Assembly: GCA_037143195.1 (NCBI GenBank)
Contig: JBAWZD010000002.1
Coordinates: forward strand, 140,620-204,619
Reading direction: 5' to 3'
DNA from: a bacterium
Lineage (GTDB): Bacteria > Patescibacteriota > Minisyncoccia > Phycocordibacterales > UBA9973
Length of the DNA: 64,000 nt
In this document: in pieces, positions 1,437-60,638 of the stretch
How the letters are laid out: each line of letters begins with the position of its first letter
How positions within the stretch are numbered: the stretch's first letter is position 1
Translations under genes and position numbers: made by a program
Notes under the pieces: generated by a model
The model's database searches: none
Told to the model about the DNA's origin: nothing
What the model saw: the letters and a program-made list of their open reading frames with translations, nothing else

Positions 1437-1845
1437 GGGGATGAAATGAATAGACAATGAGTTTCATTCTGTGTGCGCATGTCGAGCAGGGGACTACTCT
1501 CGTAAATCGTGTCCTAAACATCCAAATGCAAAAACATCTGGTGCTAAAGTAGCTTCGCCTTACGCGAAGAGCTTTGGCTTCGCATTCGCTTAATAATATA
1601 AGCCAGTGCGATGTCTCACGCGCCGATTTCTAATACGCGATGTGAGGCATAATATTTTTAGAATAGAGGACGGTCCCGCTTTGGGCCATACTCGAAATCT
1701 GTAGAGCTCGGAACGAATGTATTTTGTCGTTTTACAAGCATTCGAACTTAAATCTGTCGCAAGACAGAATATAAAACTGACTACACATGTAGAAGCGCGT
1801 GGAATCACGCATTGCACGAGGGTTCGCTACCCTCCATCTCCACCC
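1437..1845 (+). ncRNA. ssrA: tmRNA (ssrA); tag reading frame 1528-1590 encodes AKTSGAKVASPYAKSFGFAFA followed by TAA TAA
   Basis: 5' GGGGATG pairs with 3' CATCTCC (1835-1841) giving tRNA-Ala-like acceptor with G3.U wobble, discriminator A then CC; T-arm GAGGG-ttcgcta-CCCTC 1818-1834; resume codon GCA; immediately downstream of smpB. Confidence 0.7.
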
Positions 1846-7320: not shown

Positions 7321-7393
7321 CCACCCTTAGCTCAGTTGGTTAGAGCATCGAGCTTATACCTCGAGGGTCCTTGGTTCGAATCCAAGAGGGTGG
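7321..7393 (+). tRNA. tRNA-Ile with anticodon UAU (anticodon loop cTTATAc)
   Basis: acceptor CCACCCT/AGGGTGG, D-arm GCTC-agttggtta-GAGC, anticodon stem TCGAG/CTCGA, T-arm CTTGG-ttcgaat-CCAAG, discriminator A. Confidence 0.7.
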
Positions 7394-7400
7394 ACATTCT

Positions 7401-22035: not shown

Positions 22036-22103
22036 CTTAGTATAGGAATTATATAAGTGCTTGATTACAAAATAGTTTTTATAAAGTACGGCTTCACTAT
22101 CTG

Positions 22104-22189
22104 CGGAGGCGGTGAGATTCGAACTCACGGAACCAATTAAGGTTCGACGGTTTAGTAAACCGTTGATTTAAACCACTCATCCACGCCTC
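22104..22189 (-). tRNA. type II tRNA (Ser-like: long variable arm, discriminator G) with unusual anticodon loop uuACUaa
   Basis: RC reads GGAGGCG-tg-GAT..ATC-a-ACGGT-ttactaa-ACCGT-c-GAACC-ttaatt-GGTTC-c-GTGAG-ttcgaat-CTCAC-CGCCTCC-g. Confidence 0.6.
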
Positions 22190-22264
22190 CTGTTTCGCAC
22201 TGATGCAGTATAGCTTTTATCGTGAAATAGGCAAGGCGAATTGTTTTTGTATATAATAGTACAC

Positions 22265-58321: not shown

Positions 58322-58392
58322 CGCGGGGTGGAGAAGTGGTATCTCGTAAGGCTCATAACCTTGAGACGGCTGTTCGATTCAGCCCCCCGCAA
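58322..58392 (+). tRNA. initiator tRNA-fMet (CAU)
   Basis: starts CGCGGGGTGGAG.. and ends CCCCGCAA giving C1xA72 mismatch; anticodon loop cuCAUaa. Confidence 0.85.
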
Positions 58393-58406
58393 CAAGAATA
58401 TCTCCT

Positions 58407-58664
58407 ATGTGGTTTGTCTACATTCTCATGTGCGAAGACGGTAGTTTGTATACAGGGATTACGACCGACCTCGATCGGCGTTTTCTTGAGCACAAAAACA
58501 AAAAAGGTGCGCGGTATACGCGCAGTCACGGTGTCGTTTCCTGTGTTTATTCTGAGCAGAGCGCCTCGCGCAGCGAGGCGCTCATCCGCGAAGCCGAGAT
58601 CAAGAAACTTCATAGGGAAGACAAGCTCGCTCTCGCAAAATCAAAAATATTGAAAAACTCCTAA
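58407..58664 (+). CDS. GIY-YIG nuclease family protein (UPF0213/YhbQ-like, 85 aa)
   Basis: MWFVYILMCEDGSLYTGITTDLDRRFLEHK GIY-YIG motif. Confidence 0.75.
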   Translation: MWFVYILMCEDGSLYTGITTDLDRRFLEHKNKKGARYTRSHGVVSCVYSEQSASRSEALIREAEIKKLHREDKLALAKSKILKNS

Positions 58665-58687
58665 AATGTGCTATATTTTCTTGGATT

Positions 58688-58761
58688 GTCGGCGTAGCTC
58701 AGTTAGTTAGAGCATCTCACTCATAAAGAGAAGGTCGCAGGTGCAACTCCTGCCGTCGACA
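58688..58761 (+). tRNA. tRNA with CAU anticodon (elongator Met or Ile2), atypical T-loop TGCAACT
   Basis: GTCGGCG-ta-GCTC-agttagtta-GAGC-a-TCTCA-ctCATaa-AGAGA-aggtc-GCAGG-tgcaact-CCTGC-CGTCGAC-a. Confidence 0.65.
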
Positions 58762-58833
58762 CCTTTTGATTTCTAAGGATTTTTTTGTACAGTCGGTTAG
58801 CGTATAGTACTGTCACAGTGTATACTTATAAAT

Positions 58834-59514
58834 ATGCCGACACAGAAGAAAGTGAATAAAAACTTTTTTAAAAAATGGACACCTGAAATGGCGTACGTGA
58901 TTGGCTTTTTTGCGGCAGATGGGTGTATTACTACGAATTCACGCGGTGGGCAATTTTGGTCTATTCAAATCACAGACAAGGAATTGCTTGAAACAATTAA
59001 GGACACAATCGGTGCCGAACACAAAATTGGTATCAGGAAAAAGAGACAACTATCACACAAAATATTATACCGTCTTCAGATTGGGAGTATTGAAATGTGT
59101 GATGATTTGCGTTCGCTCGGGTATGTTGAAAAAAAGACAGACCGCCTTGTTTTGCCAGATATTCCATCGAAGTATCTTTCAGATTTTGTAAGAGGGTATT
59201 TCGATGGGGATGGGAGCGTTTGGGTGGGGAAAATGCACACAGAACGAGTTACTTCGACTATTGTGATATCGGTCGCGTTTACTTCGGGCTCGTTTTCCTT
59301 TCTTGAATCACTCCAATCGGTGCTTCGAGTCTTGCTCGGCATGACAGGGAGTATCTCAAAACGAAAAGGGAAAGAGTGCTGGTGTTTACGCTACAGTGTC
59401 CGAGATAGTTTGAAATTGTACGATTTTATGTATAATAGCCATGTCCAGACAAATCGCCTTTTTTTGAACAGGAAGAAGGTCGTGTTTGAACAATATAAGG
59501 AAATGCAGTCGTAG
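58834..59514 (+). CDS. LAGLIDADG-family homing endonuclease, free-standing (two LAGLIDADG motifs)
   Basis: YVIGFFAADGCI and FVRGYFDGDGSV; own TTGTAC-N17-TATAGT promoter 58790-58820; stop codon lies inside exon 1 of tRNA-Asp. Confidence 0.75.
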   Translation: MPTQKKVNKNFFKKWTPEMAYVIGFFAADGCITTNSRGGQFWSIQITDKELLETIKDTIGAEHKIGIRKKRQLSHKILYRLQIGSIEMCDDLRSLGYVEKKTDRLVLPDIPSKYLSDFVRGYFDGDGSVWVGKMHTERVTSTIVISVAFTSGSFSFLESLQSVLRVLLGMTGSISKRKGKECWCLRYSVRDSLKLYDFMYNSHVQTNRLFLNRKKVVFEQYKEMQS

Positions 59515-59848
59515 CTCAACTGGTCAGAGCACTCCCCTGTAGATCGTGCAGCTTATTGCTGAAAGGCAGTTTGAAACTCTTTGGGATAACGGTGAAGGCT
59601 GACTCTCTTTTTTGGAGATATGCGAATACCGTGGGAACCCTTTCGGAAGCATTCGTGCTTCGCTTCGAATAGATTGAACCTACTTTCAGAGTAGCGTCTA
59701 CCGAAGGGAAGGGGCGCCGTAGAGACTAGATACCGAAGCACCTACTTTTGCCCTCGGGTAGATATGGTGAAGATATAGTCCATGCCATTACGAAAGTCGT
59801 GGATACCGTGCACGGGAGAGGTTGCGGGTTCGACCCCCGTCGACTGCG
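59505..59848 (+). tRNA. tRNA-Asp (GUC) interrupted in the anticodon loop; exon1 59505-59540, exon2 59811-59848
   Basis: exons join to GCAGTCG-ta-GCTC-aactggtca-GAGC-a-CTCCC-cuGUCac-GGGAG-aggtt-GCGGG-ttcgacc-CCCGT-CGACTGC-g; loop CUGUCAC identical to bacterial tRNA-Asp. Confidence 0.75.
59541..59810 (+). mobile_element. group I intron-like element (270 nt) in tRNA-Asp anticodon loop
   Basis: exon ends in U, intron ends in G; GCAG guide-like sequence 9-12 nt into intron pairs with exon cuGU; P7-like GACUA (59724-59728) ... UAGUC (59776-59780) elements. Confidence 0.6.
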
Positions 59849-59856
59849 CAGAAACA

Positions 59857-59888
59857 AAAGGTCACGCGTATGCGTGACCTTTTGTGTT
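59857..59888 (+). terminator. terminator after tRNA-Asp
   Basis: aaaaGGTCACGCgtatGCGTGACCttttgt. Confidence 0.7.
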
Positions 59889-60530: not shown

Positions 60531-60603
60531 AGCCGTTGTAGCTCAGTTGGTAGAGCACATTCATGGTAAGAATGAGGTCTCCGGTTCAATCCCGGACAAC
60601 GGC
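60531..60603 (+). tRNA. tRNA-Thr (GGU)
   Basis: GCCGTTG..CATTC-atGGTaa-GAATG..TCCGG-ttcaatc-CCGGA-CAACGGC-t. Confidence 0.85.
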
Positions 60604-60638
60604 TCCCGCAGATTTTTGGCGGAAGCAGTGCGTTTGTT

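Follow-up and report, generated by a model that had tools for sequence, protein, structure and literature searches.

Group I introns of bacterial tRNA genes were classically divided into four classes, which Williams (bioRxiv 10.1101/2020.01.27.920355) extended to 21 tRNA/site classes; the tRNA-Asp and tRNA-Asn classes were first listed there, by tFind. Nakagawa et al. (mSystems 2026, PMC13011429) described group I introns between positions 35 and 36 of tRNA-Asp(GUC) and tRNA-Asn(GUU) in Patescibacteria and demonstrated precise in vitro self-splicing of the tRNA-Asp intron from GCA_001029755.1, in which a mutation of the terminal G to C blocked exon ligation. They also typed the patescibacterial introns as subgroup IA by covariance models, and concluded from the lack of endonuclease genes in most tRNA introns that horizontal transfer is limited. 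Here we analyze a further locus of this type, found in a 64,000-nucleotide (nt) stretch of contig JBAWZD010000002.1 (hereafter "the window"). Positions 59505–59848 of the window very probably constitute a tRNA-Asp(GUC) gene split between U35 and C36 by a 270-nt group I intron that lacks an open reading frame (ORF) and belongs to the Patescibacteria tRNA-Asp/tRNA-Asn site family. The kind of intron is itself already known, self-splicing having been shown for one published tRNA-Asp homologue. What is new here is the size of the family, together with the finding that, at 37 of 44 assessable intron-containing loci, the 5' end of tRNA-Asp is fused to a gene for a LAGLIDADG endonuclease, intact or wrecked. 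A first-pass annotation of the window had remarked that Asp would be an unusual host for such an intron, a view that was already outdated by the two studies cited above.

The split tRNA-Asp gene

In its intron mode, ARAGORN identified tRNA-Asp(GTC) at 59505–59849 with a 270-nt intron at 59541–59810 and the junctions cctgt/AGAT...CGTG/cacgg (slashes mark the splice sites), i.e. after the second anticodon nucleotide and before the third (35/36). Joining the exons by hand yields the same standard 75-nt cloverleaf, with a 7-bp acceptor stem (GCAGUCG/CGACUGC), the discriminator G59848 and the anticodon loop CUGUCAC; the predicted ligated-exon sequence reads ...CCCCUGUCACGGG.... The first-pass annotation, which had placed the split at 35/36 and recommended a tRNA search with intron detection, was thus correct to the base. 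The bases flanking the junctions differ on both sides (exon T and intron A at the 5' junction, intron G and exon C at the 3' junction), and hence the boundaries of the intron cannot slide; it follows an exonic U (U59540) and ends in G (G59810), exactly as had been suggested. The alternative considered at that time, a continuous tRNA without an intron, does not exist at this locus, as neither ARAGORN with default settings nor Rfam's tRNA model finds anything at 59505–59848.

Default ARAGORN also detects no second tRNA-Asp in the 64-kb window. If there is no intronless copy of tRNA-Asp elsewhere in the genome, the decoding of GAY codons needs splicing. Like the published 35/36 introns, the one in the window is overlooked by default tRNA finders, which means that a genome with such a split gene would be scored as devoid of tRNA-Asp, and that an organism with a minimal genome may depend on a ribozyme to decode its Asp codons. 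Nakagawa et al. (PMC13011429) have already made these two points. The coordinates of all features are collected in Table 1.

Table 1. Features of the tRNA-Asp locus (window positions) and the evidence on which each assignment is based.
Feature	Position	Strand	Evidence or remark
Promoter-like site before tRNA-Met, TTGAAA-16-TATATT with TG	58650–58677	+	Consensus match only
tRNA-Met(CAU), conserved left neighbour of the endonuclease/tRNA-Asp unit	58688–58763	+	ARAGORN; locus comparison
Free-standing LAGLIDADG endonuclease gene, 226 amino acids (aa); stop TAG 59512–59514 = U8-A9-G10 of tRNA-Asp	58834–59514	+	Pfam LAGLIDADG_3 (PF14528), 6.7e-18
tRNA-Asp(GUC) 5' exon: acceptor 5' strand, D-arm, anticodon stem 5' strand, loop C32 U33 G34 U35	59505–59540	+	ARAGORN intron mode; sequence read
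Group I intron of 270 nt without an internal ORF; last nucleotide guanosine 59810 (omega-G)	59541–59810	+	ARAGORN intron mode, Rfam, RNAalifold, covariation, profile
P1: exon CUGU + intron A (59537–59541) with UGCAG (59547–59551); U59540.G59548 marks the 5' splice site	59537–59551	+	Invariant in 47 members
P2 hairpin AUUGCU-GAAA-GGCAGU, GAAA cap	59555–59570	+	6/6 pairs compensatory
P3 5' strand CUUUGG; partner CCGAAG 59733–59738	59579–59584	+	4/6 pairs compensatory; 99.6% of cells paired
P4 (59589–59594/59627–59632), enclosing P5 (59598–59599/59622–59623) and P5a (59604–59607/59615–59618)	59589–59632	+	Alignment-based structure
P6 domain, 85 nt, branched extension	59634–59718	+	Helix base covaries; minimum free energy -29.4 kcal/mol
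P7 5' strand GAGACUA with bulged A; partner UAGUCC 59776–59781; putative guanosine-binding helix	59722–59728	+	Pairs possible in 47/47; columns invariant, partly imposed by the search pattern
P8, motif CCUA(A/C)...UAUGG resembling the 11-nt tetraloop receptor	59739–59769	+	Alignment A1 and covariation
P9.0 (59782–59783/59808–59809), enclosing the P9 hairpin CCAUUAC-GAAA-GUCGUGG (59785–59802)	59782–59809	+	Covariation
tRNA-Asp 3' exon: C36 A37 C38, anticodon stem 3' strand, variable loop, T-arm, acceptor 3' strand, discriminator G; CCA not encoded	59811–59848	+	ARAGORN intron mode
Terminator-like hairpin 6 nt past the discriminator of tRNA-Asp, 14-bp stem followed by a T-rich tail	59854–59885	+	Consensus match only

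The intron and its family

The Rfam Intron_gpI model (RF00028), a search with which had been recommended by the first-pass annotation, matches positions 59531–59802 over its full length (model positions 1–253; 26.6 bits, E = 4e-4 in a search of 2.6 kb). At gathering thresholds Rfam reports nothing at the tRNA-Asp site, and it took the intron mode of ARAGORN and the E-value mode of the Rfam search to find the split gene. Williams (bioRxiv 10.1101/2020.01.27.920355) and Nakagawa et al. (PMC13011429) both noted a weak performance of RF00028 for the introns of bacterial tRNA genes.

We scanned one genome per species with a pattern composed of P7, J8-7, the terminal G, the exon and the T-loop, which listed at least 120 loci; the family counts given below are drawn from these. 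Nearly all of them come from metagenome-assembled genomes (MAGs) of Patescibacteria or from archaeal-labelled bins, and for archaeal-labelled bins with such introns mis-binning has been suspected by Williams (bioRxiv 10.1101/2020.01.27.920355). At least 46 further non-identical tRNA-Asp(GTC) genes, all from species representatives, carry an intron of 196–250 nt at exactly the same site, which makes the family far larger than the three published cases. About 69 loci are of the Asn type, with a 3' exon starting with TAA as in tRNA-Asn(GUU); 15 of these are called tRNA-Asn(GUU) with a 35/36 intron by ARAGORN, the others receiving various different calls. Some Asn-type introns (loci L013, L021, L044, L048, L056, L064, L071, L082, L086, L096 and L102) are approximately 490–560 nt long and have room for an internal ORF, whereas in the tRNA-Asp loci the endonuclease gene is situated outside the intron. 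These long introns probably correspond to the HNH-encoding tRNA-Asn introns of Nakagawa et al. (PMC13011429).

A profile hidden Markov model trained on the 46 tRNA-Asp introns other than that of the window has a single match in the window (nhmmer; positions 59535–59815, 184.6 bits, E = 4.3e-56). By this score the membership of the window intron in the tRNA-Asp intron family is settled, and a chance origin of the tRNA-Asp/intron match is excluded. The earlier description of the insert as group I-like is likewise borne out, by the end-to-end Rfam match and the profile match together.

The window intron and the 46 others were aligned (alignment A1, 47 sequences, mean column identity 59%), and RNAalifold, run unguided, recovered P1, P2, P3, P4, P5, P5a, P6, P8 and P9. 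Of the group I core (P3-P7-P9), whose absence had been named as an argument against the intron, P3 and P9 are among the helices recovered. Base pairs were counted in a full structure written out by us, including the P7 pseudoknot and P9.0. A standard pair is formed in 96.6% of the alignment cells, compared to 37–45% when the partners are slid by 1–3 columns, and compensatory changes are found in 29 of 56 pairs (345 cells), values that none of 500 shuffles attained. Compensatory pairs are present in P2, P3, P4, P5, P5a, P6, P8 and P9 (three pairs in the last of these); for instance, the outermost pair of P4 alternates between U-A (25 sequences) and A-U (22 sequences), while P9.0 is formed by C-G in 35 sequences, U-A in 8 and U-G in 4. 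The U.G wobble in P1 and the terminal G of the intron are found in 47/47 members. Two further elements had been recognized at first sight and are both present: the guide-like gcag proposed to pair with exon cuGU is GCAG at 59548–59551, with the wobble U59540.G59548, and the GACUA...UAGUC pair is made of GACUA at 59724–59728 and UAGUC at 59776–59780.

We infer that the window intron would be spliced by the standard group I chemistry. The primary transcript would fold so that exon CUGU pairs with the guide GCAG as P1, with U35 in the wobble pair, and an external guanosine held in P7 would attack after U35. The terminal G59810, positioned by P9.0, would then take over the guanosine site, and the freed 3'-OH of U35 would attack before C36, restoring the loop CUGUCAC.

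Several observations weigh against an active group I intron in this gene. The Rfam score falls short of the gathering score (50). Neither P1 nor P7 varies across the 47 members, and they carry no covariation signal; P1 is fixed by the anticodon loop from which it is formed, while the columns of P7 are partly fixed by the search pattern of our own scan, so that neither helix counts as covariation evidence. P10 is weak, and we do not claim it: its candidate, exon CACG with CGUG at 59545–59548, shares bases with P1 and lacks conservation among the family members. The window intron is also the longest of the 47, owing to a P6 domain of 85 nt versus a family median of 31; this extension, which may affect folding, is found in no other member. 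Finally, the homologue tested in vitro (GCA_001029755.1) is a more distant relative from Microgenomatia. The atypically large P6 insertion, and the fact that just 64 kb of the genome are in view, would suit a decayed relic that no longer splices, in which case the gene would be a tRNA-Asp pseudogene with a functional copy elsewhere in the genome. We consider this very unlikely, since the window copy retains every invariant column of the 47-member family (invariance being defined with the window included), aligns with the whole 46-intron profile at 184.6 bits, is flanked by exons that fold into a flawless cloverleaf, and resides in the conserved context tRNA-Met / tRNA-Asp / tRNA-Thr / tRNA-Thr. 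Moreover, copies with and without an intron are rarely found together for the same anticodon (Nakagawa et al., PMC13011429).

The LAGLIDADG gene fused to tRNA-Asp

The ORF that precedes the split gene has an intact frame and overlaps tRNA-Asp at 59505–59514. Its product matches PF14528 with 65.2 bits (cut-off 22.5) and contains two motifs, GFFAADG with D29 and GYFDGDG with D126, both aspartates being invariant in 26 homologues (alignment A2). The best match in the PDB is 2dch_X (E = 6.6e-7), deposited as "putative homing endonuclease", which we take to be the archaeal rRNA-intron enzyme I-Tsp061I. The only exact match to the protein is in a Logan contig of 1.8 kb whose sequence equals that of the window.

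A tblastn search of the loci found via the intron revealed homologues with 34–67% identity, in the same place and orientation upstream of tRNA-Asp, and none at the 69 Asn-type loci. Among the 44 intron-containing tRNA-Asp loci with enough upstream sequence to be assessed, the gene is intact in 28, degraded in 9 and absent from 7. Of the 28 intact ORFs, 21 have their end within the tRNA, 15 of these exactly at nucleotides 8–10. The spacer between tRNA-Met and tRNA-Asp, which the gene fills, measures about 700–940 nt where the gene is intact and 75–204 nt where it is absent or reduced to a C-terminal remnant. Such patchy presence and decay at a fixed site, combined with conservation of the predicted catalytic residues, is the signature of a homing endonuclease gene.

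We also searched metagenomes starting from the protein and kept the best 80 of 553 relatives. Downstream sequence was available for 66 of these loci, and the tRNA-Asp located there is intronless in 54 and intron-containing in 12. The geometry of the overlap between the ORF and the tRNA is the same in both groups, and when the loci are grouped by similarity of their endonucleases, the intron-containing alleles are scattered among the intronless ones. Because it is found upstream of intronless and intron-containing tRNA-Asp alike, the endonuclease is, by its genomic placement, tied to the 5' end of the tRNA gene and not to the intron. No description of this arrangement was found in the literature searched, Nakagawa et al. 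(PMC13011429) included, and the fusion of the endonuclease gene with tRNA-Asp is apparently unreported.

These counts bear on two other roles that the LAGLIDADG protein could play. LAGLIDADG maturases are established in fungal mitochondria. I-AniI is among the PDB matches of the window protein, and its gene, intact or degraded, abuts the split tRNA at 37 of the 44 assessable loci, as might be expected if the protein acted as a maturase and the intron were not autonomously self-splicing in vivo. The same protein family, however, precedes mostly intronless tRNA-Asp genes when the loci are found via the protein alone (54 of 66, from the best 80 of 553 relatives), seven intron-containing loci have no trace of the gene and nine only its wrecks, the homologous tRNA-Asp intron self-splices without any protein, and the invariance of both catalytic aspartates fits a nuclease. 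We therefore reject a dedicated maturase role, on account of the intronless neighbours and of the protein-free splicing of the homologue, and regard it as very improbable.

The second role is strict collaborative homing (the model is reviewed in PMC3984707), in which the free-standing endonuclease would cut intronless tRNA-Asp at the intron site and the intron would protect its own allele. This was our initial suspicion, as the endonuclease gene occurs at most intron-containing loci and at 0/69 Asn-type ones; in addition, 26 bp separate the ORF-less intron from the free-standing endonuclease gene, and the arrangement resembles two phage systems summarized by Hausner et al. We dropped it after the protein-first search, in which the tRNA-Asp linked to the endonuclease turned out to be mostly intronless (54 versus 12 among the best 80 of 553 relatives). 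If the enzyme cleaved the anticodon region of intronless genes, its own locus would be a target in most carriers, and neither the shared overlap geometry nor the interspersion of both kinds of alleles among related endonucleases agrees with this model, which we now find highly unlikely. One of the two phage systems is presumably the cyanophage S-PM2 psbA/F-CphI pair, where we take F-CphI to be the partner of the psbA intron.

A different type of mobility is conceivable, although we put it forward as a tentative and rather doubtful proposal: the ORF-less tRNA-Asp intron, which seems immobile for want of an internal endonuclease gene, may instead travel in trans from genome to genome by means of the free-standing LAGLIDADG gene. 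The endonuclease would introduce a double-strand break in alleles that lack its gene, and the break would be repaired from the donor, with tRNA-Met and tRNA-Asp serving as homology arms. With only 26 bp between the end of the endonuclease ORF and the insertion site of the intron, an intron present in the donor would be co-converted. The share of intron-containing genes among endonuclease-linked tRNA-Asp (12/66) may be compared to 3/95 in complete genomes (Nakagawa et al., PMC13011429), a rough comparison that is confounded by lineage; the Asn-type loci contained no intronless tRNA-Asp without the endonuclease that could serve as a control set. The presence of a LAGLIDADG gene or wreck at 37/44 intron-containing loci bears on the published inference of little horizontal spread.

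Genomic neighbourhood and relation to known systems

The promoter-like and terminator-like sites (Table 1) suggest that tRNA-Met, the LAGLIDADG gene, tRNA-Asp and the terminator probably form one transcription unit. Because the stop codon of the endonuclease is U8-A9-G10 of the tRNA, an RNase P cut at position 1 of tRNA-Asp would, provided that this unit is real, strip it off and leave a non-stop mRNA, and expression of the endonuclease would be coupled inversely to maturation of the tRNA. The closest relative among the fetched loci (L083, CAZRTW010000004.1; GatA 76% and LAGLIDADG protein 67% identical) displays the same order of tRNA-Met, LAGLIDADG gene and tRNA-Asp, with a 246-nt intron at the same site. 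All near relatives identified by GatA, by the endonuclease or by the intron are MAGs labelled Patescibacteria, Paceibacterota or Saccharibacteria, which makes a host in the phylum Patescibacteria probable. The window is of bacterial origin, as it contains a tmRNA gene and ORFs that we take, from their reading, to be gatA and prfB. The tmRNA gene (1437–1845, plus strand; Rfam RF00023, 110 bits) is of the one-piece type, with several insertions relative to the consensus.

Upstream of the unit, between tRNA-Met(CAU) genes at 58322–58393 and 58688–58763, an ORF of 85 aa (58407–58664, plus strand) encodes a GIY-YIG domain only (Pfam 1.8e-18). Its product might be either another selfish nuclease in this tRNA cluster or a small GIY-YIG protein with a housekeeping role; a few of the fetched loci have weak homologues. 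On the other side, the window tRNA-Thr(GGU) gene (60531–60607) is uninterrupted. At two metagenome loci, L180 and L191, ARAGORN calls tRNA-Arg(GCG) or tRNA-Arg(ACG) with introns of 190–199 nt about 150–690 nt downstream of tRNA-Asp, in the place occupied by tRNA-Thr(GGU) in other loci. These calls match the divergent tRNA-Thr(GGU) 36/37 introns that, according to Nakagawa et al. (PMC13011429), are mis-called Arg(GCG) by ARAGORN.

Two tRNA genes located elsewhere in the window have uncommon anticodons. A tRNA-Ser with the anticodon ACU (22103–22190, minus strand; stem ACGGU/ACCGU, loop UUACUAA) accompanies a normal tRNA-Ser(GCU) at 29502–29589; A34 is unusual in bacterial tRNAs except for tRNA-Arg(ACG). 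A tRNA-Ile with the anticodon UAU is encoded at 7321–7395 (plus strand; Rfam tRNA, 70.3 bits); bacteria usually read AUA with a lysidine-modified CAU tRNA, and UAU tRNAs are uncommon.

As to its relation to known introns, the window intron shares with those of Nakagawa et al. (PMC13011429) the host tRNA, the anticodon, the site, the U at position -1, the terminal G and the absence of an internal endonuclease gene. Over aligned columns, and with the sequences taken from their supplementary table, it is 79% identical to the Paceibacteria tRNA-Asp intron of GCA_023898525.1, 75% to the Paceibacteria tRNA-Asn intron of GCA_030583765.1 and 69% to the Microgenomatia tRNA-Asp intron of GCA_001029755.1, the one tested in vitro. 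By these identities it is a further member of the published Patescibacteria 35/36 family and no new kind, set apart from the 46 other members aligned here by its length and its P6 domain.

The assignment to a subgroup is less straightforward. Just four invariant nucleotides, GAUA (59729–59732), separate P7 from P3' in 47/47 members, and the helices P7.1/P7.2, for which there is no room between P7 and P3', are absent from all of them. Subgroup IA is said to have been defined classically, by Michel and Westhof in 1990, by these very extra helices, in whose place the window intron has only GAUA. Introns of the IC3 subgroup (Azoarcus type) have a compact core without P2.1 or P5abc, and their P2 and P9 GAAA loops dock in receptors in P8 and P5. 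In the window intron, P2 and P9 are capped by GAAA loops and P8 contains a motif similar to CCUAA..UAUGG, and the intron thereby presumably resembles that of Azoarcus. It is also similar to the IC3 introns of Azoarcus tRNA-Ile(CAU) and cyanobacterial tRNA-Leu(UAA) in being compact (these measure ~200–250 nt) and ORF-less, in its location in the anticodon loop and in a very short P1 built on loop bases, but it differs from them in the site (35/36 versus 36/37 or 34/35), the host tRNA and the phylum. The published covariance-model typing of the patescibacterial introns is IA, not IC (Nakagawa et al., PMC13011429), in contrast to the lack of room for P7.1/P7.2 in the window family.

The endonuclease belongs to the same LAGLIDADG superfamily as the enzymes of rRNA gene insertions in Patescibacteria, alternatively called the Candidate Phyla Radiation (CPR) (PMC11270868), which come from the same phylum, and as the archaeal enzyme of PDB 2dch. 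Unlike both, which are encoded inside their element, it is free-standing in the spacer between tRNA-Met and tRNA-Asp. In this respect it is reminiscent of phage systems, for which the published accounts describe a free-standing nuclease gene within a tRNA cluster (T4 SegB, PMC2330249), a free-standing endonuclease beside an ORF-less intron (T4 mobE with the I-TevIII intron, PMC2790892) and a free-standing homing endonuclease of a cyanophage (F-CphI, PMC6083498). According to these accounts, the nuclease genes lie outside introns, between conserved genes, as in the window, and can co-convert flanking DNA. If the proposed co-conversion is true, trans-homing would be a testable route for the spread of ORF-less introns in cellular genomes, beyond phages. 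In contrast to SegB, mobE and F-CphI, the window enzyme is a two-motif LAGLIDADG protein encoded in a cellular genome, with its stop codon inside a tRNA (U8-A9-G10); its cleavage activity is predicted from sequence, and its family accompanies both intronless and intron-containing alleles.

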